DNA of 32,000 bases from Desulfovibrio ferrophilus (GCF_003966735.1 NZ_AP017378.1:1848905-1880904); one strand, 5' to 3'; counted from the first letter of the stretch, positions 690 through 18,812 are shown. The notes: generated from the letters alone by a model not told the origin. Program-made: numbers and translations.

Positions 690-1715
690 CTAGAGCACTT
701 TGGCGTAGACAAAGCCGCCGGATTGTTTGGGGAACGGGAGCGGGCGGGACTCGACACCCATCCAATAGGCGGAGGGATTTTCCTCTTCCCAGGCCTTGGC
801 GAAATACTCGTTGGGCTTGCCGTGGTTCTTGAGATCCTCGGGCACGCCGAACTCGATGCTGCACTTGGCAGAGGTGGAGCCCAACAGGACATAATCAGGG
901 TGCAGCAGATGCTGAACCGTGCCATCGAAGTCCTCGTACTCACCGCCGTAGGAGTAGATATCCAGGCCGTTGTATTCACCCTTGCGCAGCTTGTTCACGT
1001 CCGGGGAAAGGCTCCCAATCTCGATGCGACGGCGATCCAAATCGTCCTTAATCTTGGCGTTGCCCTTGAAAGCGCGCCAAGCGTTGGTGCCCATGACGCA
1101 CACATCCGCACCCACCCCGGCGGCATTCAGGATGAGCGCGGCCCAGTCCTCGAAATTGGCTTCGGGATCGCCGCCGTCCTGGCCCCACTTCACGCCATCA
1201 CCAAGCACGATCTTGTGCTCAGCGGGCATGAGAAAATCGATGTCCAGGACCTTCATCCCCTCCTGAACAACGGACAATCCGCCCTTGACCGCTTGGGCGC
1301 ACATGAACTCGATGGTCAGTTCGATGTCGTCTTTGATGGCATCCAGGTCGCGGACGATGGTCTCCTCGATGGCGGCGTCCAGATCTTCTGGCGTATTGCG
1401 ATAGGGTCCCTGACCCGGACGGCTGACGTCGATCAACTCCGGTGCGGAGAAACGTTCGATGGGGTTCATGCGCGGAGTCTTGACCGTGCGCAGCTCACGC
1501 TTGGTTTTGGGGGACAGGGTTCCACCCTCGTAGTCGGTCACAAAGGGGACCAGGGTACGGCCGCGAACCAGCACTTCCAGCTCAGCAAACTTGCTGGGCA
1601 GCTTGTTGCGGGTACGGAAGAATAGCTCCTTGAACAGACCCGGGAGCGGCTTGCGGGCGGTGATGACCTCGGTCAAAGTCCGGGCATCGAACTGAAGAGG
1701 CAGTTGAGTGGGCAT
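690..1715 (-). CDS. Major capsid protein, lambda gpE-like family
   Basis: 341 aa, the same length as lambda gpE. It sits directly after a decoration-protein gene, and the N-terminus (PTQLPLQFDARTL...FFRTRN...VPFVTDYEGG) is typical of the capsid protein E family. An AGGAGAA RBS lies upstream. Confidence 0.85.
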   Translation of the reverse strand: MPTQLPLQFDARTLTEVITARKPLPGLFKELFFRTRNKLPSKFAELEVLVRGRTLVPFVTDYEGGTLSPKTKRELRTVKTPRMNPIERFSAPELIDVSRPGQGPYRNTPEDLDAAIEETIVRDLDAIKDDIELTIEFMCAQAVKGGLSVVQEGMKVLDIDFLMPAEHKIVLGDGVKWGQDGGDPEANFEDWAALILNAAGVGADVCVMGTNAWRAFKGNAKIKDDLDRRRIEIGSLSPDVNKLRKGEYNGLDIYSYGGEYEDFDGTVQHLLHPDYVLLGSTSAKCSIEFGVPEDLKNHGKPNEYFAKAWEEENPSAYWMGVESRPLPFPKQSGGFVYAKVL

Positions 1716-1734
1716 ATTGAATTCTCCTTGCTAG

Positions 1735-2094
1735 TTACTTGACGTACAGGCCCTTGGTAGCCAGGGCGGTGACGGCTGCGGCCTTTTGCTCGGCAGTCGC
1801 GGCATCGGGCCAACCGAGGCCTTTGCCCCGAAACTCACCATGCACGTATACGTTCGCGCTGATGTCTCCCGCGCTGGGCACACGGACGTCCTCCACCAGG
1901 ATCACGGCGGCAACTTCACTGCCGTCAGCGGCGGCAGGGTTCCAAGGCACGGCTTTACCTGTGGCGGTGACAAGACCGAGCACCGTTCCGGCAACGAGAT
2001 CCACTTCCGCACCGCTGGAGGCCAGCACGCAATGCTTCATGATCGCAGGATGACTGCCCACAAAGTTCGGGGCCTGGTAGCTTGCAACGTGCAT
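1735..2094 (-). CDS. Head decoration protein (lambda gpD-like)
   Basis: 119 aa, located between the protease and the major capsid gene as in lambda. It is Gly/Ala/Val-rich and ends in ...GLYVK. Confidence 0.7.
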   Translation of the reverse strand: MHVASYQAPNFVGSHPAIMKHCVLASSGAEVDLVAGTVLGLVTATGKAVPWNPAAADGSEVAAVILVEDVRVPSAGDISANVYVHGEFRGKGLGWPDAATAEQKAAAVTALATKGLYVK

Positions 2095-2097
2095 GGC

Positions 2098-3297
2098 CTA
2101 CCTCCTTTCCAGTTTTTTCATGCGTTCAGCCGAGGCCGCCCGCTTCATATCGGGGGTCTCAGGCTGGGGCTGCCGGGTGGCATGGACGGGGGACGGGCCG
2201 CTGTCATGCAGGGCCTGCAAAATCTGTTTGCGTGACTCGCTTTCGTCCCCGCCTTCGTCCTCGGGCTTCTGCGCGGATGCAGCGAGCAACGGCGCAAGGG
2301 CTTCGAGCTGTACGGAGGAAACCCCGGCATCGGCCAGCGCCTGAAAACGGTCGGCGGCTTCGTCACCGGCCACGGTGCGGATCAGGGTGGCGGCTTCGGC
2401 CATGGCCTGCTTTCGGCCCTGTTCCTGCGCGCCGTCTTTGGCCTCTGTTTCGATCTGCGCGAGCAGCTCCGGATGCTGGGCTTCCAGCTCCTTTCTGGTC
2501 ATGGGAGATGACTCCTGTGTTAGACGTTCGATGAGTTCTTCACGGCCTGCGACGATGCCGCTGACAAGCCCCAATTCCAGGGCCTTTTCAGCGAAAAATG
2601 TTTTGCCGTCCGCCCACTGGTCCACGCCCGAGGCATCAAGGCCCATGCCCTGGGCAACGTCCTCAGTGAACAGGCTGTAGAGGGTGGTGCATTGTTCCTG
2701 CAGGCAGGCTTGATCTTCCTCGGACAAGGGGTTGTCCGGGTTGCCCACAACCTTCCATTTGCCCGCATGGACGTAAGTGACGTTCACGCCGAGCTGGTCG
2801 TTGTACTTGGACCAATCCAGGTGCTGCATGACCACACCCACGGAACCTACCTCGGCAGTCTTGGGTGCGTAAATCTTGCCCGTGGCCGCGCCGATCCAGT
2901 ACGCGGCGGACATCATGGTGCCGTCGGCATAGGCACACATGGGCTTTTCGTCCCGGACCGAATAGATCCAGTCAGCTAGGACCTTCACGCCGTCGGCACC
3001 ACCGCCGGGGCTATCCACATTCAGCAGAAGAGAACGCACTGAGCTATCAGCTAGAGCCGCTTGGATATCCTCGCGAATCTGCTCGTAGCCCTGTGCCCAC
3101 CAGCCGCCGCGCTTGGACAGCACACCTTGGATGTTGATCACGGCCACGCCGCTGATGACGTCATAAGAGGCGCGAGCCTGCTCGGACTGACGACCAAACA
3201 GGCCCGCACCAGCCGAGGGATGGCGGGTTTCAAGATAGATACGTTCCACGGCGCTGGGCGCGACCGCCCACAAGCGCTGCCCCAAAAGCTCAAACAT
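2098..3297 (-). CDS. S49-family (ClpP-fold) head maturation protease / minor capsid protein C, probably with a C-terminal scaffold-like tail
   Basis: Start chosen at ATG 3297, which forms an ATGTTTGA overlap with the portal stop at 3290-3292. S49/SppA-like core (NVDSPGGGADG..., MMSAAYWIGAATGKIYA) followed by an acidic helical tail. Position matches lambda gpC/Nu3. Confidence 0.85.
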   Translation of the reverse strand: MFELLGQRLWAVAPSAVERIYLETRHPSAGAGLFGRQSEQARASYDVISGVAVINIQGVLSKRGGWWAQGYEQIREDIQAALADSSVRSLLLNVDSPGGGADGVKVLADWIYSVRDEKPMCAYADGTMMSAAYWIGAATGKIYAPKTAEVGSVGVVMQHLDWSKYNDQLGVNVTYVHAGKWKVVGNPDNPLSEEDQACLQEQCTTLYSLFTEDVAQGMGLDASGVDQWADGKTFFAEKALELGLVSGIVAGREELIERLTQESSPMTRKELEAQHPELLAQIETEAKDGAQEQGRKQAMAEAATLIRTVAGDEAADRFQALADAGVSSVQLEALAPLLAASAQKPEDEGGDESESRKQILQALHDSGPSPVHATRQPQPETPDMKRAASAERMKKLERR

Positions 3298-4807
3298 CGG
3301 CGATCTCCTGTTGCTTGCTATCCAGTTCACGCAGGCGGGCTTCTTCGGCTTCGCGCTGGTCCCAGACCTCCTCGATATCGCCACCGCGTTCGGCAATAAC
3401 GTCGGCGTAAGTGGTCAAGCGGGCCTCCAGGGCCTTGGTCGAGGCCACGACTTCCTTCACCGGATCCACATACCCACGAGCGGGGCCAATCCAGGTGGCG
3501 TTGGTGTAGGCAGCCATCGCGTCATAAAAATCGGGAGCGCCCTGGGGCAGCGTGATGATGCCGCGCAGCCAGGCTTCTTCCTGGATCATGCTCCAGATGG
3601 GCTGGCAATAATGACGCACCAGCCAGGTGCGGTAGAGCATGAAGATGCGCCAGGCCTCCAACAATGCGGCCCGGGCGGAGGAATAGTTGGTCTTGGAAAA
3701 ATCCTTGGCCAGGACCTCGTAGGGCATGCCCACAGAAGCGGCCATGGAACGCATGATCAGCTCGGCAAACGAGGTGAAGTTGTTGCCGGGCCGTTTGCTT
3801 TCGATGGGGATGGGCTCTTCACCCGGATTGCCATAGGCGACCGTGCCGGGGGGAAGATTCTGGAAATAACGACGCTGATCCTCTTCGCCTTCCACTGGCT
3901 GGGGCTGCGCCCACTGGCGAGCAACGGCTTGGGGGTCCTTGGTGGCGATGAACACCGGGAAGGACGCGGAGACGATCTGCGCCATGAGCTCGTAGTCGAA
4001 GGAGTCGTTCAGATGCCGGAACAGCTTCATGCCCGGGGCGAGCTTGGGCACACCGCGCACCTGTTCGTCCTCCTCCGCTCGGAAGCAGTGGAACACGCCA
4101 GGGCGGTGCCCGGTCAGCGCCGGACGCCGGACAAAGTGGGCCGAACCAAGGAGGGAGAATGGTTGGTTCAGGCCCACTCCCCGGCTCGGCTCAGGGCTGG
4201 CAATCCAATAGGCAAGGGGACGGCCGATGGGCGACAGCTCCACGCCGTCTCGAAGGGACGTATCCATGGTGCGGTCGGAGGGGGTACAAAGACGCGCCGG
4301 ATGCACATCCTGAAACGCCAGAGAAAAGGTACGGCCCGGATCATCGAGCATCAGCGGCAGATGCACCAGCTCGCCCATGCGCAACAGCGAGCGCATGCCC
4401 AGAAAGACAAGGTCGTCAAAATGGAGCTTACCCGAGACGTGCGCCTCAGCAGACCACAGTCGCCAGGCCCACTCCATCTGCTCGTTTAGGTCTTTGGCGG
4501 CTTCCTGCGAGATACCCAAGCGCTTCCAATTCACTCGCGCCTGGGGCTTGATGCCTGAGCCGACCGTATTCACGGTCATGGAATCGACAACCGAAGCGGC
4601 AGCCCAATCGTTGGCGGTCAAATCCTCGGAGCGGGTCTGCGCGGTGCCACGCTCGAAAGCCTCGTGGGAAATGGTCGTGCGGGTGGGACGGTAGTTGCTG
4701 AGGGTACCGCGATGCCGCCCGGCGTCGCGCGAGATAGACGGCATGGAGCGACCAAGGGCGGAGGCCATGCGCAGGGAGCGCTTGCGAGTCAGCGCCGGTG
4801 CCCTCAT
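3290..4807 (-). CDS. Portal protein, lambda gpB family
   Basis: 505 aa, ATGA overlap with the gpW stop. Sequence style is that of the lambda portal family (…NDWAAASVVDSMTVNTVGSGIKPQ…). Order is W-portal-protease. Confidence 0.9.
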   Translation of the reverse strand: MRAPALTRKRSLRMASALGRSMPSISRDAGRHRGTLSNYRPTRTTISHEAFERGTAQTRSEDLTANDWAAASVVDSMTVNTVGSGIKPQARVNWKRLGISQEAAKDLNEQMEWAWRLWSAEAHVSGKLHFDDLVFLGMRSLLRMGELVHLPLMLDDPGRTFSLAFQDVHPARLCTPSDRTMDTSLRDGVELSPIGRPLAYWIASPEPSRGVGLNQPFSLLGSAHFVRRPALTGHRPGVFHCFRAEEDEQVRGVPKLAPGMKLFRHLNDSFDYELMAQIVSASFPVFIATKDPQAVARQWAQPQPVEGEEDQRRYFQNLPPGTVAYGNPGEEPIPIESKRPGNNFTSFAELIMRSMAASVGMPYEVLAKDFSKTNYSSARAALLEAWRIFMLYRTWLVRHYCQPIWSMIQEEAWLRGIITLPQGAPDFYDAMAAYTNATWIGPARGYVDPVKEVVASTKALEARLTTYADVIAERGGDIEEVWDQREAEEARLRELDSKQQEIADV

Positions 4808-5025
4808 CGCACAACCCGCCCGGTGACGAACACGGGGCCGGACTGACCAACGAGCTTGCAGCGCTCCGCATCAAGCCATTCGATAGTGGTGCGGATCTCC
4901 GGCGCGTCCTGCAGCGTGAGCGTGCGCCCTGCTATAGAGTACGCTTTACCCCGCGACACGGAGAGAAGCGCCTTCTTCCAGGCGGCTATCTGCTGCTCAA
5001 GCTCTTCTGTTGACCAAATAGACAT
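4804..5025 (-). CDS. Head-tail joining protein gpW-like
   Basis: 73 aa immediately upstream of the portal gene. Size and motif layout (…GKAYSIAGRTLTLQDAPEIRTTIEWLDAE…) match the lambda gpW family. Confidence 0.7.
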   Translation of the reverse strand: MSIWSTEELEQQIAAWKKALLSVSRGKAYSIAGRTLTLQDAPEIRTTIEWLDAERCKLVGQSGPVFVTGRVVR

Positions 5026-5059
5026 GCCCGGCAGGATAGACCGGGCCGGGCATCATGTC

Positions 5060-5085
5060 GTGGACGTGGTGGACGTGGTGGACGG
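5060..5085. repeat. Tandem 9-mer GTGGACGTG x 2.9 at the high-GC/low-GC junction
   Basis: Read directly: GTGGACGTG GTGGACGTG GTGGACGG, immediately followed by an A-run and the AT-rich island. Confidence 0.8.
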
Positions 5086-5163
5086 AAAAAAATATTATAA
5101 AACGACAAACTAATTATATATTCACAAACACAGACAGTTATCTAACCAACCCCAGGCAATCAT

Positions 5164-7572
5164 CTATCCGAGCAATTTCTTCTTTAATTCTATTTCAATT
5201 TTTTTCAATGAACCTTTAAGAATATTATTTTCTGCATAAAAACTAAAATCAGAAATACAGCCTTGTTTTATTATAGCGGTATCTCCATAACTACCACTCT
5301 CTTTATCAAGAGCATTATTGAAAAACATATCCATTATAACATCATAATTCATCGATAAACCAACCTGAGACATTGAAATATCGGCAAGATCAACACCCTT
5401 CATTATCAATGCATCTCGATAAACAAATTCATCAACAACCCGTTTAATATCTTTAATAAGCAAAATATATGAATATTTCGTTTCGCCGCGTTTTGCTTTC
5501 AACGATTCAATGATATAAACTGTATCTTCATCTAAAAAACAATTTTTGAATGAACTTGAAGCAAAAGTATCACTATTTAAAAGGCTTAAATACTTTGTAT
5601 AACAGGATACAAATTTAGTATTTCTATCAAAAATGCAAGATGAAAACGATGTATGCACAAATCTACAATTTGAAAAATGACAGTTTGAAAAATCAAATGC
5701 AGAAATTTCTCCGTTAAAATACAAATCACTAAACATATCATTTATAGAAAGAAATTTTTTAAAATATCTAGTCCGCTCGTGCACATCCGAACGAGAAGCC
5801 AGCTTTGATATTGCCTGCAAAGCAAGCGTTGTCCCTAGCAACGACAAAGAGCTCAGTTGCGAATTAAAATGAATACTACACCCCATACTCAGCAAAAATT
5901 GAACGATAGATACAACTTCTGATTCAGCTTTACTTAAATCTTGCCGTGAAAAAGAATACTCCACAATCGCTAACGCAACATTAGAGGCATGAAGAGAATT
6001 CAATGATATCAAATCATTTATAAAAGCCAAAAGATCAGACTGAGAGAAAACATCAAGCTCTCCTTTTACATCAGATCGCTCAAGTATATACTCGCAAATA
6101 CGCTGCGCAGCCAAATTATAGAAAATTTGCTCCTGCCTAAATGCCCAAACATTATCTTCGCTATCTTTCAAACACAAAAGAGGATGCGAGGTCAGTTTTC
6201 CAAGAGCTCGATTATCAGCGCCTCCTAACAAATCAACAATTTGATGCGACTCGACGCCATTAGCCTCTAAAACCTCCTCCAATACCTCACCGCTCCCTTC
6301 ACCCAATTTAGAGGCTGTCGCCTCAATAAAATCCTTAAAAACTTTTAATTGAGTTTGAAAATCTAGGCCAATCTGCTGCCTCCTCTCCTCACGCTCGCAC
6401 AAACGCTCCATTAGCCAAGCTAAATAGCTTCTCCCATTGAGATGATCACGCAAATCTGAAACGCTATGCCCATATTTAAATAAATCTGCAAGCAAACTGA
6501 TCGTAACGCCCTTACCAATTGGGTTATACTTTCTATCAGCAAATATAAGGTAAAGATCTTTATATAATTTCAAGGCTTTTTGAACAGCCCCCTCTGATTC
6601 AATCGTTAGTTTAAAATACCTTTCCACCTGCTCATCTTTAAACGATTTCATATGAAACACATCAACATCACAAGGCAATGTGCTTAAAACATCATCGTTT
6701 ACAGCCGCGTTCCAAAAAGTAGTTCTTGAAGTTATTATAATATCAGAATTTGAATCATGTGCGAGCTCAGCCAATGACCGCAAAGCCTCTTCTGCACTTA
6801 CCGTTTTATTGTTCCAAAGAATATACTCATCAAACCCGTCAAATATTATTTGAAATACTCCTGCGGCTAGCATTGCTTTTAAAAATCGCTTCTCGTGCCC
6901 CTCAACCCAGTGGATCGAAGCCCCATAATAATTGAAACAAAAAGTTAAAGTACTCCATATAGATTTCAAGTCACTTTCAAAAATTGATTTCCACTGGTTG
7001 GAAAAAATATAAATAGGTATGATATCGGTCATACTTGAAGCAAAGTGCCTAGAAAAAAAAGACTTACCTTGCCCAGGTGAAGCCAACAAAACTTTCAAAG
7101 CCCCCTTATCACGTGAAGGCCCCACCTTCACCCCAGGAAAAGAACGAGAAGCATCTTCTGATTCAATCGTGGGTTGGATATAATTATCCACTGTAAGATC
7201 AGAAATTTTCTTTTTATAATCATTAATTTCTGATGTAATCAACTTCACTAAGAATTGACGAGTAGTATAAACGCTCAAGTTGTCAAGACCAACTATAGTT
7301 TTTATATTCAACTCCATAGAGACTGGATGGACGACTATCGGATCACCTAATCGTGACACCCTTGAAAACGCTCTATTAACAGAATCCGTTGTGGCATCAG
7401 AGTAAAAATATATTAAATACTTAATTGAAGCAGCATCTAAAGCTTGCCTCATGGAGAATTTATAAATTTGCCAATGCCCTTTTTCCTCATAATCACATTT
7501 GGAGTTGATTGTTATATCACCATGACATCGTAGCAACTCAACAATAACTTTAAAATCTAATTTACTATCCAC
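5164..7572 (-). CDS. NACHT-type STAND NTPase with an unassigned N-terminal domain and C-terminal pentapeptide repeats
   Basis: 802 aa with a GTG start 4 nt after the upstream stop. Walker A is ASPGQGKS (res 164-171), Walker B is IIFDGFDE (242-249, the NACHT DGxDE signature), and a TSR motif lies at 281-283. Phe recurs every 5 residues at 628/633/638/643/648 (FDFSNCHFSNCRFVHTSFSSCIFD). Confidence 0.8.
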   Translation of the reverse strand: MDSKLDFKVIVELLRCHGDITINSKCDYEEKGHWQIYKFSMRQALDAASIKYLIYFYSDATTDSVNRAFSRVSRLGDPIVVHPVSMELNIKTIVGLDNLSVYTTRQFLVKLITSEINDYKKKISDLTVDNYIQPTIESEDASRSFPGVKVGPSRDKGALKVLLASPGQGKSFFSRHFASSMTDIIPIYIFSNQWKSIFESDLKSIWSTLTFCFNYYGASIHWVEGHEKRFLKAMLAAGVFQIIFDGFDEYILWNNKTVSAEEALRSLAELAHDSNSDIIITSRTTFWNAAVNDDVLSTLPCDVDVFHMKSFKDEQVERYFKLTIESEGAVQKALKLYKDLYLIFADRKYNPIGKGVTISLLADLFKYGHSVSDLRDHLNGRSYLAWLMERLCEREERRQQIGLDFQTQLKVFKDFIEATASKLGEGSGEVLEEVLEANGVESHQIVDLLGGADNRALGKLTSHPLLCLKDSEDNVWAFRQEQIFYNLAAQRICEYILERSDVKGELDVFSQSDLLAFINDLISLNSLHASNVALAIVEYSFSRQDLSKAESEVVSIVQFLLSMGCSIHFNSQLSSLSLLGTTLALQAISKLASRSDVHERTRYFKKFLSINDMFSDLYFNGEISAFDFSNCHFSNCRFVHTSFSSCIFDRNTKFVSCYTKYLSLLNSDTFASSSFKNCFLDEDTVYIIESLKAKRGETKYSYILLIKDIKRVVDEFVYRDALIMKGVDLADISMSQVGLSMNYDVIMDMFFNNALDKESGSYGDTAIIKQGCISDFSFYAENNILKGSLKKIEIELKKKLLG

Positions 7573-7576
7573 AGCT

Positions 7577-8419
7577 CTACACCCCTATACAATCAACAAG
7601 AATAGCACTAGACACAGAGTCAACATCAAAGTATACGCACTTGCTAAAATCTATGCCGCGCAATTCCGCCCCACAAAAATCAACTTCTCGCAACTCTGCT
7701 CCTTCAAAATCAACATCAACCAATAATGAGTTACAGAAACTTGCCCCATTTATTACTGACTTTGAAAAATCACTATCAACAATTAGACAATCATCAAAAT
7801 CACCACCACGCATCTTCGACAGCACAAAACTACACTCAATCAACACTGAGCCACTAAATGAAGAATCAATAAACTTGGCCGCGCAAAATCTACACCCACA
7901 CATATCAGATTTCACAAATGACACCTCATTAATGTCTTTATTACATAAACTTAATTTTACTATCTCTATGCAATCCAGATTAAAACCTTTAACTTTCAGC
8001 CTACACAGCTCATCAAAACAGTTAACCAAGCCAGAATGACTATATGGAGTATATACCTCTTTGCATACATCCATCTTTACACGAATAGAATCAATACTTT
8101 CATTTTTCTTTTTTCTCTCCGACAGAATATGAAATACAATACCAAATATAAAAAACTCTAAAATAGCCCCGTGCATTTCAACTTTTACACCAGAAAAAAA
8201 ACTTTGATCATTCAAATAATTTTTTAATGATATTGAAAAAGTAACAACAATTAGCGCTATAAATATAAATACAAGCTCTTTATTCGAAGCACAAAATCTT
8301 TTTATACGACTATAATACAAAAAATAAAATCTCTTCACATTAGATATATAAAACATCAAATCAAAATTTATACACCATGTAGCAAACAAATTGTATTTAT
8401 CATATAAACTTGAAAGCAT
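7577..8419 (-). CDS. Membrane-anchored pentapeptide-repeat protein
   Basis: ATG at 8419 is preferred over the GTG at 8425 because an AGGAG lies 5 nt upstream. Hydrophobic helices LVFIFIALIVVTFSISL and AILEFFIFGIVFHIL. After these come about 24 pentapeptide units, with Phe at ORF residues 170,180,190...260 (e.g. VDFEGAELREVDFCGAELRGIDFSKC). Confidence 0.75.
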   Translation of the reverse strand: MLSSLYDKYNLFATWCINFDLMFYISNVKRFYFLYYSRIKRFCASNKELVFIFIALIVVTFSISLKNYLNDQSFFSGVKVEMHGAILEFFIFGIVFHILSERKKKNESIDSIRVKMDVCKEVYTPYSHSGLVNCFDELCRLKVKGFNLDCIEIVKLSLCNKDINEVSFVKSDMCGCRFCAAKFIDSSFSGSVLIECSFVLSKMRGGDFDDCLIVDSDFSKSVINGASFCNSLLVDVDFEGAELREVDFCGAELRGIDFSKCVYFDVDSVSSAILVDCIGV

Positions 8420-8581
8420 TCCCACTCCTATACATTTTCAAATATATACAATCCATTGAGCAAGTGCCATATTGCTCTTAGCTGAACCGATACATTTTGT
8501 ACAGAAAGTTGTTTTTTTAATTACTTGTATTGGGTTTCTCCTACTCTCCCATGCTTTTTACTGGAAACATCCTTATCTTCT

Positions 8582-8794
8582 TCACCTGCTGAGCCCCGAG
8601 TGCCTACTTAATAAATTATTCACCTCTTCTTCCCACACCCACACCCCGCGCACCTTCCCTGCCCGAAAAGCTGGAAGCTTGCCCTCATTAATCAAATTAT
8701 AAAAATGGCTCTTGGAGCAATTCAGCATCTCGCAGGCTTGCTTCCAGTTCAATTTTCGACCTTTGCCCATCTCTGCGCTTCTATCCATTTTCAT
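8582..8794 (-). CDS. Small helix-turn-helix DNA-binding protein (excisionase/AlpA/MerR-like HTH)
   Basis: 70 aa. LNWKQACEMLNCSKSHFYNLINEGKLPAFRAGKVRGVWVWEEEV matches the excisionase-family HTH pattern. Its ATG lies 2 nt after the terL stop (TAG 8797-8799). Intermediate GC. Confidence 0.6.
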   Translation of the reverse strand: MKMDRSAEMGKGRKLNWKQACEMLNCSKSHFYNLINEGKLPAFRAGKVRGVWVWEEEVNNLLSRHSGLSR

Positions 8795-8796
8795 AG

Positions 8797-10803
8797 CTAT
8801 CTCCTGTTGAACCAGTCCGGGCGAGAACCGTACCCAGCATTTGTATTGGGGTGGGGGATCATCTGCTGCTTACGTTCGTTCGCCTGCTTCGGCTTCGCCC
8901 TTGGCCGCTTCCAGTTGCGGATGTTCAACTCATAGGCCGCCACCAATGCCATGACCTCACAGTCCCAAAAGTGATTATCCTTGCCCTTGGGGCACTGCCA
9001 ACAGAGCTGCTCATCGTCGTAGTATTCGGCCACCATCTCCTGAGCATATTCATTGGTCACACTCGCATGCAGATGAAACGCGCCCGGGTCGCTTGGCTCT
9101 ATCTGCAGTTTAGCGGCGAGATCATTCTTGAAGAAGGTGGTATCCACCTTCCACAGCACAAGGCCACCAGGGATGCGAGATTTTGTACCTGGGTAGAATT
9201 CCTGCGGGGCATACTGCACAGGTGAAGAGAGTGTACGCTTGCCCTGGTAGGGGAACACCCGCCCTCGATTCTTGACGCAGAACTGATAGACTTCTTTGGT
9301 GCGCGTGCCCATAGCGTCCTGCACCGCCAACCGCACACGGTGCTCATTCCCATCCGCATCGCAGTAGGTGTTCTTGCAAAGTACCTGCTCTAGGGCCTCG
9401 AAGCTGGGGACGCTCCCGGCCTGCACCAACCAGCTCTCCTCATCCTCGCCCCAGCCGATGGCCCGGATCACGTAGCGGAAATAGCGCTTCTGGGAGTCCA
9501 CCCCGGCCACCAAAGCGGCCACGTGCGGAGTACCGTCCTCCAGCGCCCCGGGCACGATGCCGCGCGGACGGTCGTCGCACAAGGCCAGGATCGCATCCTC
9601 GTTGCGCTGCACCTCATAGGCTCGCCACGGCTCGGCCTTGTACTGGTTCATAAAGTCCTTCAGGTCGTCGCGGTTGCCGGTCTTCTTCCATTTCAGGAAG
9701 GCCGCCGCGACCTCGGAAAGCGAAACGAAGTAGGACAGCCAGGCCGGGATATGGAACCCAACCTTGGCCGGGCGATGCGCACGCAAATGCCCCGCCAATT
9801 CCAGCCCGGTGTTGCGCGCCCGCCACTCGCCCAAGCGCACGGCCTTGTCTCGGTCGTTGTCGTCCCAGCACACACCACACTGCCCGCATTCGTACCAAGC
9901 CAGGCGACGCGCACGAACCACCTCGGGATCCCGCTCATCCTTGGGCCAACGAATATGGTCAAAATCCATGAGTAGGTGCATCCCGCAATGCGGGCAACGC
10001 ACAAAGTAATCAAAGACGACTTGGACCTCTTCGGTCAGCGACCGCCAGATCGGGCCGCTCTCTATGGTGGGGGTCGAGATCTTCCATATCTTGCGCTTGC
10101 GCCGCCAGGTCGTGGTGCGCTTCTCGGCCAGGGCCTCGCTGGAGGTCTCGTTCTTGGGGTTCTTGTATTTGTCCAGCTCATCCATCACCAGAAAGCGCAC
10201 CGGCTTGTTTCCCAGGCGGGAGACGGAGCCGGACCAGCCAAGGTAGATGGTCATGTGCGCAAGGTTGATACGCAGGCTGCTGGCGTCGTCCGCAAGCCCG
10301 GTCAGATAGTTGCGCAGCTGCGGGCTGGACTCCAGCATCGGGATGATCCGGTCCTGGGCATTCTCCTTGGCTGTCAGCCGATCCGGGAATACATACATCA
10401 CCGGCCCAGGCGCACGGTCGATTGCGTAGCCGATGCAGTTATGAATGGCTTCGGACCCGCCGGTCTGCGGAGTCTTGCAGATGGCCACCGTCTCCACGGA
10501 CGGAAAAAACGAGGCATCCATCACGCCTGCCATGTAGGGGGTCACCTCGTTGTGCCAGCGCCCGGGAATGGACGACTGATGAACGATGCGGTGCTTCTCT
10601 GCCCATTGGCTCACGGGCATGGGCCTGCGCTTGCGGTAGACCTTGCGCTCGCCCAGTGAGAACCGGAAGCGATGCACCACACGGCCATCCTCGCCAATTC
10701 GCCGCGACAAAACGGAGCGCACCGCGTCGGGTAGCCAACGCGGCAGCGCCACCGTCAGGCTGCGGCTATTCACCTGTTTCGGTTCCATTTCCTGCATCAG
10801 CAT
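8797..10803 (-). CDS. Terminase large subunit, lambda GpA family
   Basis: 668 aa. N-terminal ATPase (…ICKTPQTGGSEA… and FLVMDELDKY), a Cys4 zinc-finger-like CPHCG…CGQCG, and GpA-style overall length and organisation. An earlier or later start (M3/M6) is possible. Confidence 0.9.
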   Translation of the reverse strand: MLMQEMEPKQVNSRSLTVALPRWLPDAVRSVLSRRIGEDGRVVHRFRFSLGERKVYRKRRPMPVSQWAEKHRIVHQSSIPGRWHNEVTPYMAGVMDASFFPSVETVAICKTPQTGGSEAIHNCIGYAIDRAPGPVMYVFPDRLTAKENAQDRIIPMLESSPQLRNYLTGLADDASSLRINLAHMTIYLGWSGSVSRLGNKPVRFLVMDELDKYKNPKNETSSEALAEKRTTTWRRKRKIWKISTPTIESGPIWRSLTEEVQVVFDYFVRCPHCGMHLLMDFDHIRWPKDERDPEVVRARRLAWYECGQCGVCWDDNDRDKAVRLGEWRARNTGLELAGHLRAHRPAKVGFHIPAWLSYFVSLSEVAAAFLKWKKTGNRDDLKDFMNQYKAEPWRAYEVQRNEDAILALCDDRPRGIVPGALEDGTPHVAALVAGVDSQKRYFRYVIRAIGWGEDEESWLVQAGSVPSFEALEQVLCKNTYCDADGNEHRVRLAVQDAMGTRTKEVYQFCVKNRGRVFPYQGKRTLSSPVQYAPQEFYPGTKSRIPGGLVLWKVDTTFFKNDLAAKLQIEPSDPGAFHLHASVTNEYAQEMVAEYYDDEQLCWQCPKGKDNHFWDCEVMALVAAYELNIRNWKRPRAKPKQANERKQQMIPHPNTNAGYGSRPDWFNRR

Positions 10804-11347
10804 CTGTAAACGTCACCTCGAATTCTGCTTTACTTGCAAACTGGTTCAGCGCTTCGTTGAGATAGCCATCAAACACTTCCAAAAACCGCTGTGACTTGCG
10901 TGGGTCACCGTCCACCAAGTGGATCAGATCGAGCACGTTCATCTCCACGGCCTGCCGAAGACCAGACTCCAAAACAACAGCCCGGCCCGCCAGCTCCAGC
11001 TCCACCTGTTCACGAGGGATGAAGCGGCCACGCTCCACCTCCCGCTTAAAGCGGATCCGCGCGGTCTCTTCCTCAATCTTCTGAATGGTTGCTTCCTGCC
11101 TGCGCCTGGCGAGCTCCTTGATATTGTCGGAGTCCACCTTGGGCACGGCCACCAAGGGCAACGCCTGCGCGTAGGCATCCACAGCGGCCTTGCTAAATCC
11201 GCCTCCGGGCTGTCGCGCGAGCAGTCCTGTTTTCACATCCTGATACAACTTGGATTTTCTCACCTTGCGACCGCAGTCCTGCAGGTGCTCAAGAACCTCG
11301 TTAACGCTCGTAAGATTCTCCATCGGCATCTGATCTGTCTTGCTCAT
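10766..11347 (-). CDS. Putative terminase small subunit / DNA-recognition protein
   Basis: 193 aa directly upstream of and overlapping terL. Has a helical, charged middle region. Assigned by position only. Confidence 0.4.
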   Translation of the reverse strand: MSKTDQMPMENLTSVNEVLEHLQDCGRKVRKSKLYQDVKTGLLARQPGGGFSKAAVDAYAQALPLVAVPKVDSDNIKELARRRQEATIQKIEEETARIRFKREVERGRFIPREQVELELAGRAVVLESGLRQAVEMNVLDLIHLVDGDPRKSQRFLEVFDGYLNEALNQFASKAEFEVTFTDADAGNGTETGE

Positions 11348-12759
11348 CAGATCCTCACCACCAGGTTATCCGCCGTGATAATCGCGGCGGGATGTCGGTC
11401 GAGATAAGCCCCTAGTTCGTCGTCCTGAAAGCACAACTCCTTGAGCCGTCGCAGAATGCCAGTGTGTCCACGAAGGGGCTTCGGAATATCGAAAGGTTGA
11501 GAACCACTGAACGTCAGCTGAATGCCGGTCTCCCGCAGCAAACGCTCCAAGGCCGCCAGGCTGGTGGTTTTTTGTTCAGGCTGCTTAGACTCAGGTGAGG
11601 CCAGGGCCGGAGCCGAGACCTCGGGAGTGGGTTGGGGTTTGGCTGGACGCACAGGGGCCGCAGGCATGAGCATGACCGGCGGCAGGCCCGCCTTGATCCA
11701 GTCCGCGATACTCACACCCGCCGCGAAGGCCTCGCCGGGATCCTTGGCTTCGGGCACTGGCCAGCGTTCGGCGTGATCGTAGGTCACCTGCCACCAGTCA
11801 CGCACGCGGCGTTGCTGGCGCACCTTGCGCTCGGCTTCCAGCTGAGCCTTTTCGCTGCTATCCGTCGGCACGAAGGACTCAAAATCCAGTGCATTCAGAA
11901 TGGTCAGAGATTGGGAGAGGACCCCATGCGTCCAGGCATCCGGCTTGGCGGAGATAGTGCCCAGCCCCAGAGCGCCCACGTCGTCACCTGTAGCAAAGTC
12001 GCAGAGCATGGCGTCCAGCTCCGCTTCCACAGCCACAAAGGCCCGGGCACCAGGGGAGAGAACCATGGTCCCGCTACCACTGCCCGGCACCCAGCAATAT
12101 TTCTTGGGGCCAAACGGCCCGGGCTTGGGGCGGCGCACACGCACACGGTGCAGTTGACCATCATGGAAAATTGGAATCACCAAGCCCGCTGGTATCCACA
12201 ACTTGCGCGGCTTACCCGTTCGCGGGTTCATCTCGTGCGGCAAACCCCACGCCGAGCGTTCGCGGTACACATCTTTGGAGAGCCACCCCAGCCGATAACG
12301 CTCGACAGCCTCCAAAGGCAGACCTCGCCGCGCAAGGAACTCCAAAGCCTCAGAGGTCCGCAGCAGTTCAGCATGGGCCGCGACCACCAGTTCATTCGCT
12401 CGGGTGCGCCAGCGCTCGGAAGGCTCACGGGCGGGCTCTGGCTGCCACGGAGAGGCCTCACGAAGACGCCGTGGGGGCAGTAGTGGACGCGGGGCGCATG
12501 GCTCCAGCTTTCGCCCAACGAAGGCCGCAGCGGCACGAAAATCCATGTGTCGAAAATCCACCAGGTACTGAATACAATCGCCACCGGAATCGCAGCCACG
12601 GCACCACCAGCTACCATCCCCACCGTTCTGCTCAGGCCAGCAATGGAAACGATCCGTCCCACCACACCCCGGACAAGGGCTGTGGTGCTCACCACCCTTG
12701 GAACCGGACACCTTACGAGGCGAAACACCATCAGCCTGTAGTAACTCAAGCACGTTCAT
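11347..12759 (-). CDS. DNA primase with an N-terminal primase zinc-ribbon (T7 gp4 / P4 alpha type) and a probable TOPRIM region
   Basis: CPGCGGTDRFHCW…WWCRGC…GGDCIQY matches the CPxCGGxDRF primase zinc-ribbon signature. An acidic FVAVEAELDA segment is consistent with TOPRIM. 470 aa. Confidence 0.7.
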   Translation of the reverse strand: MNVLELLQADGVSPRKVSGSKGGEHHSPCPGCGGTDRFHCWPEQNGGDGSWWCRGCDSGGDCIQYLVDFRHMDFRAAAAFVGRKLEPCAPRPLLPPRRLREASPWQPEPAREPSERWRTRANELVVAAHAELLRTSEALEFLARRGLPLEAVERYRLGWLSKDVYRERSAWGLPHEMNPRTGKPRKLWIPAGLVIPIFHDGQLHRVRVRRPKPGPFGPKKYCWVPGSGSGTMVLSPGARAFVAVEAELDAMLCDFATGDDVGALGLGTISAKPDAWTHGVLSQSLTILNALDFESFVPTDSSEKAQLEAERKVRQQRRVRDWWQVTYDHAERWPVPEAKDPGEAFAAGVSIADWIKAGLPPVMLMPAAPVRPAKPQPTPEVSAPALASPESKQPEQKTTSLAALERLLRETGIQLTFSGSQPFDIPKPLRGHTGILRRLKELCFQDDELGAYLDRHPAAIITADNLVVRI

Positions 12760-13059
12760 GTGCGCCTCCCCCCTCCGACCAGTGGAAAAAGCAAATTTTC
12801 TGCATGGTCCTACCCTGCTCCTGCTTCGATCCTGGCTTTGATCCTATCTCTAACATCTTTATTTTCTTTATTATTATAAGTTAAATAGGATAATAGGATG
12901 ATAAGTGTTGATACTTGTCTGAATGTCGCAACAGTACCGTATAAGGGACTCTGCACATGAATCATCCTTGGGTCCTGGCCGCACTCTATGACCCCGAAAT
13001 TGCGGGATATTCACCCAGGAGCGAAAGCGGCTACCCGCTCCTGTCTATGGTCCTTCGTC

Positions 13060-14763
13060 CTAGAACAGCTTCTCTCCACCCATTTCCTCACGGGTTTCAG
13101 CATTGAGCAGCAGGCCGTAGTACCAATTCTTCCCCCCCACCTTTTCCTTACGGAACTTCTTCTGGGCCAACGCGCCGAACTTGCGCTGGGGGAATTGCTT
13201 CTTCTTGGAGATGTTCACCGAAAACCAGCGCACGAAGGCGTCATAGAGATCCGTAGCATTCGTGCGGGTCGAGGGATCATTCAGATCAGCGAGCACAACG
13301 TCGCAGCAGTCGTCCACGAACAAGGCCAGCAAATCCTCATCCCGGCGATAATCATCCGTAGCGGCAAGGACCTTGGCAGGCGGATTCAGGCCATGCTGTT
13401 GCCACTCCAAACAACCACGCACCAGCCAGGCGAGAATGCCCGAGGCCTCAGCCATGAGCGCTTCCCCCAGGGAGTCGTCGCGCCGCATCTCGGTCTCGTC
13501 CTCTGGCTCACGATTCACAAAAGAACGCTCAAACGGGATCAGGTGCATCCGTTCCCAAAAGGCGAAATCATCGGCCGGGGCATGGGGCTTGTGGTTAGTC
13601 AACAGAAAGAGGATGTGCGTAGGCGCAAAGGTGATGGGCCGCTTGTCGTTGGGCCAGCGGCCAGTGAGCATGTCACCGCCAGAGAGCCATTTACAACGAG
13701 CCGAAGAGAAACGACGATTTTCGTCCGTCTCGGAGGCAAACGCCGCACGAAGACCACGCAAAGCCATAATGGAAGGAGACGGTGCGTCGGAGTTGCGGAC
13801 GCTGTTCTGATCCAGCAGCATCTCCGCCGGGATTGGTCCAGCGAGTGGCCCAAGAACATGCATAATAGTTTCGACCAGCATGGATTTGCCGTTGCGCCCC
13901 TTGCCATGCAGCACCGGGAGCACATGCTCCTTGTTACCGCCGCGCATGGAAGCACCGAACAAGCGCGCCAGATAACCGGCCATCTCGGCATCATCCCCCA
14001 TAATCTCATGGAGGAACCGCTCCCAACGAGGAGCCGGGGCATCGATCCCCTGCCATTCAACGGGCGAGGCCTTAAGGATAAAATCTTCCGCCCTCCCCCC
14101 ACGAAACCGACCAGAGCGAAGGTCCAATACTCCATTTGCACAGGCCACCTGCCATTCGCGGGCATCCAATTCTTCACCAGAAATGGCCAAGGGGGTGCGG
14201 TTGGTGTGGGCAAATTCCAAGCAGGCTTCGGGGCCACCCTTCTTGCGGAGCCTTTTGACCCGGGTCATGACCATCTGCTGTTGACGTTGATAGAGCGTGG
14301 CCGCGTCCTTATTTCCGGATTGAGAGGCATCCGTAGCCGATTGCCCAAGGCGCGAATGCTCTTCCAAAAGGCGCTCCGCCACGGCTTCGACCTCGGCCTT
14401 AGCCTGGTCCATCTTATCCAATCCCCAATGGTGGCCACTCCAAACAAGCCACTCCTGGGTCTGTTTGATGAAGAGGAATCTGTCGCGGTGGATTTCCGCA
14501 TAAAGCATCCCAAGTCCGAGATCCTCCGCACGTACGCAAGGCATAACAAAATCCGAAGGAACCGTGCGGCTCCCTCCGCCAGCATGGTTATCCTGACCGT
14601 CTTGATCATCCTCGGTCTGACCGGCCCGCTCCTCCTCCGCACGTCGCGCCTGTACCTTGCGGCGCATCTCTTCCAGGTCCGAAACGGCGACTCCCTGGGT
14701 GCCGGGCACCTGATCACCAGCTTTGGCCTCTGGTCCCGACCCCGTTTTGAGCTCATGGCTCAT
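13060..14763 (-). CDS. SF3 helicase, D5 / phage-plasmid primase P4 C-terminal family
   Basis: Walker A is LHGKGRNGKSMLVETI, followed by ...LRAAFASETDE (Walker B-like). The C-terminal region is typical of D5/P4-type NTPases. 567 aa. Confidence 0.85.
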   Translation of the reverse strand: MSHELKTGSGPEAKAGDQVPGTQGVAVSDLEEMRRKVQARRAEEERAGQTEDDQDGQDNHAGGGSRTVPSDFVMPCVRAEDLGLGMLYAEIHRDRFLFIKQTQEWLVWSGHHWGLDKMDQAKAEVEAVAERLLEEHSRLGQSATDASQSGNKDAATLYQRQQQMVMTRVKRLRKKGGPEACLEFAHTNRTPLAISGEELDAREWQVACANGVLDLRSGRFRGGRAEDFILKASPVEWQGIDAPAPRWERFLHEIMGDDAEMAGYLARLFGASMRGGNKEHVLPVLHGKGRNGKSMLVETIMHVLGPLAGPIPAEMLLDQNSVRNSDAPSPSIMALRGLRAAFASETDENRRFSSARCKWLSGGDMLTGRWPNDKRPITFAPTHILFLLTNHKPHAPADDFAFWERMHLIPFERSFVNREPEDETEMRRDDSLGEALMAEASGILAWLVRGCLEWQQHGLNPPAKVLAATDDYRRDEDLLALFVDDCCDVVLADLNDPSTRTNATDLYDAFVRWFSVNISKKKQFPQRKFGALAQKKFRKEKVGGKNWYYGLLLNAETREEMGGEKLF

Positions 14764-18768: not shown

Positions 18769-18788
18769 TCCCTGCCCCGATCCAGCGC

Positions 18789-18812
18789 ACAGATTGTCAT
18801 GTTACAATCTGT
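18789..18812. promoter_or_regulatory. Candidate enhancer (UAS) inverted repeat ACAGATTGT-N6-ACAATCTGT
   Basis: Perfect 9-bp arms lying 109 nt upstream of the -24 element. A second copy, 19/24 identical, occupies the equivalent position upstream of the second sigma54 promoter (28255-28278). Confidence 0.45.

Follow-up and report, generated by a model that had tools for sequence, protein, structure and literature searches.

Between the large terminase gene (terL) and the gpW-like gene of a lambda-type packaging and head module, the window (the whole 32,000-nucleotide stretch of Desulfovibrio ferrophilus DNA that was analysed) carries a foreign two-gene cassette in an exchange slot, which probably encodes an NLR-like anti-phage defence expressed in the lysogen. 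The cassette is treated as a defence candidate because known anti-phage systems occupy this slot in sister phages of the prophage, and it is a good candidate for a variant of bacterial NLR-type immunity that matches no curated defence model. Feature coordinates are collected in Table 1.

Table 1. Features of the cassette and its flanks (positions in the window, all on the minus strand).
Feature	Position	Strand	Basis or remark
Lambda-family portal (gpB)	3290..4807	-	Pfam Phage_portal_2 3.5e-88
gpW-like head-tail adaptor, conserved right-hand core gene	4804..5025	-	PHROG 118 4.8e-10
Hairpin / inverted repeat ATGCCCGG...CCGGGCAT	5021..5059	-	3' arm ends at gpW start codon
Three tandem 9-bp repeats GTCCACCAC GTCCACCAC GTCCACGAC, right slot edge	5057..5083	-	Conserved backbone element
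Foreign AT-rich cassette, actual cargo, 3541 bp	5090..8630	-	G+C and homology breakpoints
Cargo gene 2, 802-aa NLR-like NACHT NTPase	5164..7572	-	AF2 model, Foldseek and motifs
Cargo gene 1, membrane pentapeptide-repeat protein (282 aa as called)	7577..8425	-	Pfam Pentapeptide 5.1e-13, Pentapeptide_4 3.9e-13
AT-rich cassette leader	8420..8581	-	AGGAG Shine-Dalgarno 6 nt before ATG 8419
70-aa HTH_17/excisionase-family gene, left slot anchor	8582..8794	-	Pfam HTH_17 4.2e-9, TIGR01764 2.3e-8
Large terminase terL, lambda gpA type, conserved left-hand core gene	8797..10803	-	Pfam GpA_ATPase 1.1e-68, GpA_nuclease 2.5e-65

A variable slot with conserved flanks

The gene order that defines a lambda-type packaging and head module is present in the window, where Pfam and PHROG place the gpA terminase, gpW-like adaptor, gpB portal, S49 (gpC-like) protease and gpE capsid in succession on the minus strand. 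Both genes flanking the cassette had been correctly named in the initial annotation. The terL product is 45–97% identical to those of the relatives, and no cultured relative with a terL identity above 32% was found. The gpW-like gene, which also matches Pfam DUF6148 below its cut-off (3.8e-5, 24.1 bits against 27), lies directly upstream of the portal gene in the relatives too. It had been assumed that terL and W abut; in this phage family they do not, even when the slot is empty, as they are separated by a conserved small HTH gene and a repeat/hairpin element. The HTH gene (G+C 0.48) is 2 nt from the terL stop codon and adjoins terL in at least 20 relatives (44–79% identity), empty-slot loci included; because it is kept beside terL, comparative evidence assigns it to the phage backbone and not to the cargo. 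The left recombination breakpoint corresponds to the final ~16 codons of this gene. On the other side, the repeat/hairpin element in the 65 bp before gpW (5021–5083) is conserved phage backbone as well. No second copy of the tandem repeats exists in the window, where the two-repeat pattern has two overlapping exact matches and chance would give 0.2 with up to 2 mismatches allowed. They occur in 17 of 19 family members, in one copy per locus and always just 5' of gpW. The hairpin folds with -22 kcal/mol (z = -3.6), and RNAalifold on 7 relatives gives 5 hairpin pairs with compensatory changes; more distant relatives have a different sequence at this site which still forms an inverted repeat. The 5' side of terS lacks an intergenic space, and this arrangement, together with the repeat and inverted repeat at the slot edge, is no more than suggestive as to an adjacency of the slot to cos.

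The slot was compared across about 24 distinct loci of related Desulfovibrionales (pro)phages, all with the synteny terS-terL-HTH-(variable)-gpW-portal-protease-MCP. The distance from the HTH gene to gpW is 130–140 bp where the slot is empty (L016, L062 and L066), 0.3–0.9 kb in several other loci, and 1.2–7.1 kb in the loci with low-G+C cargo. In several relatives the slot holds a small ORF of backbone G+C. Eleven different cargoes were found in the relatives, including GmrSD type IV restriction (PADLOC Orf5, 3e-73), AbiL (AbiLi 1.8e-93, AbiLii 2.8e-22), SoFic (4e-45), SIR2 (1e-166) with HerA (3e-248) plus FRG/PDC-S15, a KAP NTPase (PDC-S20/PifA-like, 7.8e-66) and the toxin-antitoxin pair HicA and HicB. 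Toxin-antitoxin pairs are carried by L058 and L151 and possibly by L006. One slot cargo has an XRE HTH protein (Pfam HTH_3) adjoining a 92-aa ORF, which has no family match and is possibly a RelE/HigB-like toxin. Since the slot is empty, holds a small ORF or holds one of eleven cargoes depending on the relative, the alignments identify it as a cassette-exchange hotspot, rich in defence genes as judged by the cargo identities; the hotspot behaviour raised in the initial annotation was thus borne out. For the most part the slot cargo of the sister phages is a known anti-phage or toxin-antitoxin system. The term "defence" does not cover all of it, as some cassettes are toxin-antitoxin pairs or unknowns (L108, L003). 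Cassettes would most likely be swapped by homologous recombination in the conserved flanks.

In the relatives, strong A-tract/stem/T-tract hairpins immediately follow the HTH gene on its 3' side, the gpW side is equipped with a conserved control-like element of its own, and the cargo may lie on the opposite strand, as does GmrSD in L002. These features make the slot look like the space that separates two transcription units, where a tolerance of insertions would be understandable, and on the same grounds the earlier placement of the cassette inside the late operon is doubtful. Of the two AT-rich regions previously thought to lie upstream of the cargo, 8420–8581 does so, while 5086–5163 is downstream, the cargo being on the minus strand. 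The leader contains one weak sigma-70-like match (8470–8441, promoter-scan score 9/12), and such sites are no more numerous in this region than chance predicts (12 found, 13.0 expected).

The AT-rich cassette and its two genes

The G+C content is 0.347 in the cassette and 0.595 in the remaining window, and the sliding profile falls from 0.60–0.67 to 0.24–0.44 between about 5100 and 8600 before rising again. All 500-bp windows within the cassette have a G+C of at most 0.416, while those outside it (n = 274) have a mean of 0.596 (sd 0.041, minimum 0.464). GC3 is 0.27 and 0.30 for the two cargo genes, against 0.66–0.78 for the phage genes. The computed profile thus has a clear discontinuity, which together with the GC3 contrast confirms the composition jump first seen in hand counts, and those counts (27%, 32% and 67%) agree with computed windows of 0.24–0.31 and 0.67. 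The island had been taken to fill the whole gap of ~3.7 kb between terL and gpW; an AT-rich segment does lie there, but its foreign part is limited to the cassette, since the HTH gene and the 5021–5083 element are conserved phage backbone. The cassette breakpoints were set where the ~91% DNA identity to L002/L014 stops and resumes, with homology ending at 8631 for L002/L014 and at 8621 for L020/L006/L001. The phage represented by L002/L014, with a terL 97% identical and flanks ~91% identical, holds an unrelated GmrSD system in the slot, so that related phages do not all carry these genes with matching composition, and the GC3 of the cargo is unameliorated, which was counted toward recent acquisition. 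The initial suggestion of a recent foreign origin accordingly holds, and the comparison supports the segment being recently and horizontally acquired cargo.

The true start of cargo gene 1 is likely ATG 8419, giving a protein of 280 aa, and a 280-aa NCBI protein (P0062) is 100% identical to its product. The protein has two TM helices by hydropathy (about aa 50–70 and 85–102), a linker and a pentapeptide beta-helix (about aa 150–270; Pfam PF00805 48.8 bits, PHROG 12514 1e-16), and its family is small, a search of 1.84 billion representatives giving only 30 matches at E<1e-3. Cargo gene 2 codes for a restriction-endonuclease-like fold (1–125), a NACHT module, a helical region, a pentapeptide beta-helix (about 610–680) and a C-terminal alpha/beta domain. 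Walker A (GQGKS, 167–171) and Walker B (IIFDGFDE, 242–249) are intact. The protein itself matches Pfam NACHT weakly (18.7 bits, cut-off 26.7), its homologues carry PF05729, and its AF2 model (pLDDT 89.6, pTM 0.88) retrieves NOD2, NLRP3 and NLRC4 in Foldseek (E 2.6e-9 to 1e-6). Conservation extends over the full length of 47 homologues, in which G167, G169 and K170 are invariant and the motif D245-G-x-D-E249 is conserved. Judged by the model and motifs, the product is a NACHT-clade STAND NTPase of NLR-like type. The PDB profile match of residues 601–683 is to the pentapeptide protein 2w7z (7.8e-6), and no relationship is detectable between the pentapeptide regions of the two cargo proteins. Foldseek relates the model of the N-terminal domain to EcoT38I and AspBHI at a marginal E of 6e-3; across the homologues, no acidic or lysine catalytic residue is conserved in this nuclease-like domain, Y119 and P134 alone being invariant.

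The NACHT gene begins 4 nt past the stop codon of gene 1, and the two genes form a translationally coupled pair. In the two closest NACHT homologues (L045 and L046, 33–35% identity), a 2-TM pentapeptide gene abuts upstream, so that two further, unrelated genomes contain the pair and the abutting order is kept in three distant ones. The L045 pair again forms an island of low G+C (0.316, compared with about 0.50), and that of L046 adjoins an integrase and a resolvase. One distant homologue (L049) has HipA, Mrr-type nuclease and patatin genes as neighbours. More distant members of the family stand alone in ordinary-looking neighbourhoods (L047 and L050–L052), so the NACHT family can do without the partner, and a defence context is not general for it.

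Proposed function and alternative explanations

In the mechanism considered most plausible, the NACHT protein would be held inactive until its C-terminal helical and pentapeptide region recognised a phage-derived trigger. NTP-dependent oligomerisation would then activate an effector, most plausibly the membrane partner, with abortive infection resulting as the membrane loses its integrity; the NACHT protein's own N-terminal nuclease-like domain could be the effector instead. Expressed in the lysogen, such a defence would shield the host, and hence the prophage, from other phages.

The roles within a defence pair could also be reversed, with the effector carried by the NACHT protein (in its N-terminal or C-terminal alpha/beta domain) and the membrane protein acting as co-sensor, anchor or negative regulator (guard), an arrangement that is possible though not probable. 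The core protein must be self-sufficient in most of the NACHT family, whose members (27–30% identical, of equal length and domain order) stand alone, the partner family has very few and divergent members, and the N-terminal fold resembles that of EcoT38I and AspBHI. That resemblance is however marginal and the domain lacks conserved catalytic residues, while the abutting genes in three distant genomes suggest a tight stoichiometric coupling, and small membrane proteins are common effectors in known defence systems. It is distinctly unlikely that the cassette serves no anti-phage function and is a prophage-stabilising (addiction) or lysogenic-conversion module, for instance a signalling NTPase or a Qnr/MfpA-like protector or modulator of a host DNA-binding enzyme. 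The toxin-antitoxin pairs found in the same slot and the several NACHT homologues lying among housekeeping genes would fit such a module, as would the mimicry of DNA by pentapeptide proteins of the Qnr/MfpA type (Kaur et al.), but the gene 1 product remains far under the cut-offs of the Qnr (23.6 bits, cut-off 240) and MfpA (18.7 bits, cut-off 360) models and is membrane-anchored. Moreover, the slot cargo consists mostly of bona fide defence systems, and NACHT/STAND proteins of mobile elements are immune sensors wherever tested.

The origin of the segment is open to two further explanations. A chance insertion of an autonomous mobile element, be it an IS, a transposon or a small integrative element, would account for the sharp composition boundary and for the integrase and resolvase next to the L046 copy of the pair; this is very improbable, as neither a transposase nor an integrase gene lies in the window island, whose ends have no terminal inverted repeats or target-site duplication, while eleven unrelated cargoes use two common breakpoints inside conserved phage sequence. 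An ancestral backbone segment of odd composition, or an assembly artefact, has a negligible chance of being correct. Only the orientation shared with the flanking genes would agree with it, whereas the segment is missing from all relatives, and it is effectively refuted by the empty sites, by the D. ferrophilus genome record, which lists both proteins with 100% identity, and by the intact ORFs, the NACHT protein also folding with high predicted confidence.

Beyond an NLR-like defence of the lysogen as such, the pair could be an NLR-type immune system of two components that has so far escaped recognition, with the membrane beta-helix protein as executioner or co-receptor of an NLR-like sensor which has a pentapeptide beta-helix of its own. 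The slot would then lie beside a packaging or late-control site, formed by the GTCCACNAC repeats (x3–5) and the inverted repeat at gpW, and the repeats would be bound by the HTH protein from the opposite side of the slot, a combination we regard as rather unlikely. If true, it would tie cassette turnover mechanistically to terminase- or activator-bound DNA, a link already speculated upon for the cos-adjacent P2/P4 hotspots.

Comparison with known systems

Like the morons and lysogenic-conversion cassettes of lambda, the cassette consists of foreign, compositionally distinct genes among late genes, potentially with their own transcription in the lysogen. Classical lambda morons lie in the vicinity of lysis or tail-fibre genes, each with a defined promoter and terminator, whereas the window cassette is between packaging and head genes and has no obvious terminator. 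The right-handed quadrilateral beta-helix (Pfam PF00805; PDB 2w7z for the C-terminal region of the NACHT protein) is shared with Qnr, MfpA and AlbG. Qnr/MfpA pentapeptide proteins are DNA mimics acting on gyrase, soluble and made up wholly of repeats over roughly 200 aa; the cargo protein differs in its N-terminal 2-TM hairpin and in the coupling of its gene to an NTPase gene, and its score on the best Qnr model together with its two TM helices rules out a Qnr/MfpA equivalog. Hailong HalA was likewise ruled out (15.8 bits against a cut-off of 250, on the NACHT pentapeptide stretch only), and no HalB nucleotidyltransferase gene is present in the cassette. The Avs/AVAST STAND NTPases, which sense phage terminase and portal and are often prophage-encoded, and the other STAND proteins associated with defence (PMC13581612) have the pattern recognition of the STAND superfamily in common with the cargo protein, but the latter belongs to the NACHT clade and has a helical and pentapeptide region as its putative sensor in place of TPR-like repeats. 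Avs1-5 were ruled out, as neither cargo protein has a PADLOC match at E up to 1.

The slot resembles the defence hotspots of P2/P4 prophages (PMC9122126) in being a fixed site between conserved core genes (the same in the ~24 loci), with many unrelated, mostly low-GC cargoes of variable content, three empty sites, and a cargo rich in anti-phage systems, including STAND NTPases, Abi and type IV restriction, which presumably protects the lysogen. It differs in belonging to a lambda-type gpA/gpW/gpB/gpE module in Desulfovibrionales hosts and in its position, between terL with the HTH gene and gpW, while the P2/P4 hotspot lies between a replication gene and the portal, with cos adjacency as a hallmark (PMC9122126).

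The NACHT protein resembles the bNACHT proteins, which defend against phage and have pentapeptide repeats among their C-terminal sensor repeats (Kibby et al., 10.1101/2022.07.19.500537). The two share a central NACHT module with the NOD2/NLRP3/NLRC4 fold, pentapeptide C-terminal repeats and carriage on mobile elements, and the layout of the cargo protein may likewise be tripartite. The NACHT module of the cargo protein has intact Walker A and B motifs (its best Foldseek E is 2.6e-9, its own Pfam score being sub-threshold), and all three regions are present, the C-terminal one as the putative sensor and the N-terminal one, in contrast to bNACHT proteins, without a recognisable enzymatic effector. 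It also differs in having no PADLOC match and a match to EruA, the NCBIfam model of a NACHT antiphage protein, at 16.3 bits, far under the cut-off of 1000. Finally, bNACHT01 is a single gene, whereas the present subclade has a dedicated, translationally coupled 2-TM pentapeptide partner.

Borders and composition of the cassette

The DNA between terL and gpW had been described in the initial annotation as a recently acquired low-GC island. Along the window, the G+C content falls from 0.60-0.67 to 0.24-0.44 at about 5100-8600, and the cassette, whose limits (5090-8630) were set by homology to relatives, has a G+C content of 0.347 vs 0.595 elsewhere in the window. In a sliding profile, 500-bp windows reach at most 0.416 inside the cassette and at least 0.464 outside it (mean 0.596, sd 0.041, n = 274), with no overlap between the two sets, and GC3 is 0.27 and 0.30 for the two cargo genes vs 0.66-0.78 for the phage genes. 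The composition discontinuity that had been suggested from hand counts is thus real, and far outside the local variation of the window.

The closest relative of the window prophage (L002/L014) has a 97% identical terL and flanks that are ~91% identical in DNA. In the DNA alignment, homology to it ends at window position 8631, within the final ~16 codons of the HTH gene, and returns at 5089; the breakpoints relative to other relatives lie at 8621 on one side and 5083-5094 on the other. The cassette DNA itself is unlike that of L002/L014 despite the similarity of the flanks, which supports its foreign origin. An AT-rich foreign segment therefore does lie between terL and gpW, but it does not fill that interval, as the HTH gene and the element preceding gpW belong to the phage backbone (see the table for all features). 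No transposase or integrase gene was found in the window cassette, and a comparison of its ends gave only short, chance-level matches in place of target-site duplications or terminal inverted repeats, for which reason a transposon was dropped as an explanation. In the absence of all four, recombination within the conserved flanks is the simplest route, and we infer that cassettes are exchanged in this way.

Features of the window and of the corresponding slot (HTH gene to gpW) in related loci
Locus	Feature	Position	Strand	Remark
Window	D5-type primase-helicase	13060-14763	-	lambda-type packaging/head module region
Window	Zn-ribbon primase-like gene	11347-12759	-	
Window	terS	10766-11347	-	
Window	gpA-type terL	8797-10803	-	
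Window	HTH_17/excisionase-family gene, 70 aa	8582-8794	-	2 nt past terL stop codon
Window	AT-rich cargo gene 1 (partner)	7577-8425	-	probable start ATG 8419, AGGAG ahead
Window	AT-rich cargo gene 2 (NACHT protein)	5164-7572	-	begins 4 nt past gene 1 end
Window	repeat/hairpin element	5021-5083	-	directly before gpW
Window	gpW-like adaptor	4804-5025	-	
Window	lambda-family portal	3290-4807	-	
Window	S49 protease	2098-3396	-	
Window	gpE-type capsid protein	690-1715	-	
L002/L014	GmrSD type IV restriction enzyme		opposite	Pfam GmrSD_N 8e-33, PADLOC Orf5 3e-73
L013	AbiLi, AbiLii			1.8e-93, 2.8e-22
L012	SoFic			4e-45
L012	202-aa ORF	8656-9264		unmatched
L020	FRG-domain protein			PDC-S15
L020	SIR2 with HerA			1e-166, 3e-248
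L020	277-aa ORF	10560-11393		unmatched
L020	225-aa ORF	15713-16390		unmatched
L142	KAP NTPase, PifA-like			PDC-S20 7.8e-66
L058	HicA/HicB			
L151	HicB-like			
L006	XRE HTH protein			Pfam HTH_3 6.7e-9; adjoins 92-aa ORF, plus low-GC ORF
L108	3.8-kb block	2350-6124		no Pfam or PADLOC match
L003	1.2 kb			unidentified sequence
L002	repeat/hairpin element	13653-13720		
L062	repeat/hairpin element	6285-6357		
L066	repeat/hairpin element	8456-8547		
L064	repeat/hairpin element	6496-6578		also present in others

The strand opposite the D5-type primase-helicase gene contains an ORF of 612 aa (12988-14826, +). It matches no family and is probably spurious, of a sort common in high-GC DNA. Phage homology stops near 15.3 kb, with an AT-rich dip (G+C 0.41-0.47) at 15450-15900, and no tRNA was found in the window. 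Host genes start directly past this end (15784-31958), with a PAS/sigma-54 activator (15784-18768), several multihaem c-type cytochromes (19211-28228), a sulfur-transport protein, ATP sulfurylase (28985-30235) and an FrhB/FdhB-like Fe-S protein.

Contents of the slot among related loci

Related loci were sought by a terL scan, an HTH-protein alignment scan and a DNA motif scan, which together recovered ~24 distinct loci from Desulfovibrionales genomes, MAGs and IMG/VR contigs; the gene order terS-terL-HTH-[variable]-gpW-portal-protease-MCP was confirmed using tblastn. The 18-base motif scan of viral contigs gave mostly chance matches, and only loci confirmed by tblastn for terL, gpW or portal were kept. 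A portal-protein scan of metagenomes returned two loci only, one of them duplicating L002/L014; L152 proved to be a fragment of L002. No matches were obtained with megablast for 8.5 kb against 50,697 phage records, and terL of cultured phages is at most 32% identical in protein-level searches, so that the cos ends are not inferable from deposited genomes.

In at least 20 of the ~24 loci, the gene immediately after terL is the HTH gene, with 44-79% identity among eight aligned sequences. Since it is also found in loci with nothing more before gpW, it belongs to the backbone, despite an intermediate G+C content of 0.48. Its product shows weak similarity to the HTH of MADS MAD1 and to the HTH at the N-terminus of a terS family (PHROG 57, E 0.043).

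The slot is empty in three loci (L016, L062 and L066), where the HTH-gpW spacing is 130-140 bp. A spacing of 318-720 bp is observed for L017, L005, L015/L067, L064, L160 and L059-61; L059-61 (L059 8961-9389), L015 and L067 share a conserved ORF of 142-162 aa with backbone G+C. The remaining loci have a spacing of 0.9-7.1 kb, with a G+C content nearly always well under that of the flanks. Judging by sequence matches, systems recognised as anti-phage or toxin-antitoxin predominate among their contents. The cargo of the window was found by tblastn in none of the related loci. The 92-aa ORF of L006 has no family match and is possibly a RelE/HigB-like toxin. Empty sites and many different cargoes thus occur at the same position, and the variable spacing and differing cargoes uphold the suggestion that this junction is a hotspot. 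Other positions also vary in this phage family: L002/L014 carry a ParB-N + N6/N4 DNA methyltransferase in the primase-terS gap (L002 5917-7302), for which the equivalent site of the window (11347-11356) is empty, and L064 has a DUF5131 protein and a PAPS-reductase-domain protein in the terS-terL gap (1348-3736).

From their position, the low-GC unmatched ORFs of the slot, notably the L108 block and the L012 and L020 ORFs, are candidate novel defence genes, and the slot could yield further candidate systems. Its landmarks are simple, with the HTH gene on one side and the GTCCACNAC repeat array on the other, and are usable for harvesting candidates from metagenomes. To our knowledge, few genetic tools exist for the sulfate-reducing hosts, and little is known of their phages.

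Flanking elements and transcriptional context

The right flank of the slot is a conserved non-coding element. It has 3-5 tandem 9-bp repeats, GTCCAC[C/G]A[C/G/T], the final copy always being GTCCACGAC, followed by a ~30-nt spacer of variable sequence with retained inverted-repeat potential, and then by the gpW ATG. A TAnnnT-like hexamer lies ~10 nt before this ATG, and gpW has no Shine-Dalgarno sequence. In the window, the hairpin before gpW folds at -22 kcal/mol (z = -3.6), with compensatory changes at 5 pairs. The repeat element occurs once per locus in 17 of the 19 family members, including some with a terL identity of only ~52-55%; the other two, L016 and L017, have different 9-mers (GTTCGTAnn), and L016 also deviates in the putative recognition helix of its HTH protein. 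Possible roles of the element are those of a late promoter that depends on an activator, gpW then being near-leaderless, of a cos or terminase-binding site, or of an RNA attenuator, and the HTH protein is a candidate for binding the 9-bp repeats across the slot. Regarding cos, terS shares 1 nt with the primase-like gene (11345-11349) and 38 nt with terL (10766-10803). This leaves zero intergenic space upstream of terS, the expected place of a lambda-type cos, which is one reason to ask whether cos is in the HTH-gpW gap.

The cargo had been placed inside the late operon, where read-through could reach it. A-tract/GC-stem/T-tract hairpins come after the HTH gene in L013, L002 and L006 (-19, -15.9 and -20.9 kcal/mol; z = -5.8, -3.1 and -3.3, respectively). 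Those of L002 (~10195-10235) and L013 (~10135-10175) resemble bidirectional terminators. No terminator was reported in either locus by consensus scanning, which is likely due to the A-U stem extension using up the T-run, so the two are described as terminator-like from their predicted folding only. Together with the occurrence of cargo on either strand among relatives and with the element that precedes gpW, the hairpins point to a slot lying between two transcription units rather than inside an operon. In the window, folding gave no terminator-like structure behind the HTH gene (z = +0.5), so that transcription could here continue from terL into the cargo. The promoter scan of the island was at chance level, and no promoter is claimed; the interval 5086-5163, previously considered an upstream region of the cargo, in fact lies downstream of the cargo genes.

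The cargo pair and its relation to known systems

Both cargo proteins are 100% identical to Desulfovibrio ferrophilus entries. The first (partner) combines two TM helices with a pentapeptide-repeat beta-helix at its C-terminus, and is similar to a phage family with no assigned function (PHROG 12514, 1e-16). A profile of its N-terminal TM region alone gave only 30 matches at E<1e-3 among 1.84 billion representative proteins, and C-terminal pentapeptide repeats were present in 9 of the 10 matches scanned, which indicates a rare yet genuine 2-TM + pentapeptide family. The second carries Walker A (GQGKS) and Walker B (IIFDGFDE) motifs, with a sub-threshold Pfam NACHT match. Its AlphaFold2 model (pLDDT 89.6, pTM 0.88, from 47 homologues) has NOD2, NLRP3 and NLRC4 as best PDB matches (E 2.6e-9 to 1e-6), and an uncultured siphovirus supplies the best viral match, an "NLR family" protein of 822 aa (1.4e-12). 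Over residues ~600-683, the protein matches pentapeptide-repeat proteins (PDB 2w7z, 7.8e-6); BLASTP of the partner against the NACHT pentapeptide regions was not significant and gave no sign of duplication. The N-terminal 125 residues are modelled as an alpha/beta fold with marginal best matches to EcoT38I and AspBHI (E 6e-3, probability 0.96-0.99). This domain was not called a nuclease, as these restriction-endonuclease matches are marginal and a PDB sequence-profile search with it returned nothing; the homologue alignment showed no conserved acidic or lysine residue in it.

The NACHT protein has ~60 homologues of equal length, 23-37% identical across the full length. For the two closest (P0002 and P0003, from loci L045 and L046), a 2-TM pentapeptide gene abuts upstream, its product being 24-25% identical to the partner, with conserved TM-hairpin residues; five more distant homologues are stand-alone genes. 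The L045 pair (5149-8469) forms a sharp low-GC island (0.316 vs ~0.50) on an unrelated 1.6-Mb contig, so the pair travels as a unit outside phages. It is flanked there by signalling genes (dCache/HD-GYP and PAS-GGDEF). The L046 pair adjoins an integrase and a resolvase.

The analysis shows that the two genes are coupled and recur as a pair on mobile or low-GC DNA, it gives the modelled NLR fold and domain layout, and, judging by sequence matches, it shows the slot to be enriched in defence systems. By analogy with bacterial NACHT/STAND immunity, the NACHT protein would act as an intracellular sensor that detects a phage-derived cue through its C-terminal region of helices and pentapeptide repeats, and NTP-dependent oligomerisation would then activate an effector, leading to abortive infection. 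In the subclade of the window, the membrane partner is the more likely effector, because a small, translationally coupled TM protein suits this role and because the NACHT protein lacks an enzymatic domain with conserved catalytic residues. The existence of stand-alone NACHT homologues makes it a serious alternative that the NACHT core protein is self-sufficient, with the partner serving as a regulator or co-sensor. A role outside defence, for example in addiction or in modulating host enzymes by DNA mimicry, is the less probable reading. The cargo can be cloned and is a concrete candidate for a new type of bacterial NLR immunity that has a dedicated membrane partner. Iron corrosion and extracellular electron transfer are studied in D. 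ferrophilus IS5, and its prophage immunity is therefore relevant to any phage-based control.

The initial annotation was largely right in seeing foreign hotspot cargo here, and is amended as to the extent of the backbone, the upstream side and the operon context. The P2/P4 elements of E. coli have been mined productively as prophage defence hotspots (PMC9122126). The slot follows the same logic, but in another phage lineage (an uncultured lambda-type family of sulfate reducers) and at another position. The cargo NACHT protein has the fold and motifs of bNACHT proteins, but differs from them in its dedicated partner and in having no match to curated models of systems that have been validated: neither cargo protein has a PADLOC match, and the NCBIfam EruA and HalA scores are far under the cut-off. 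Pentapeptide repeats are already listed among bacterial NACHT sensor repeats (Kibby et al., 10.1101/2022.07.19.500537), so the combination of NACHT and pentapeptide repeats is not new. In an incomplete coverage of the literature, we found no account of a defence slot between terL and gpW, nor of an operon that pairs NACHT with a 2-TM pentapeptide protein. The slot and its cargo are an instance of a known phenomenon, carrying an uncharacterised variant within a known class of immune proteins, and the results contradict nothing in current understanding.
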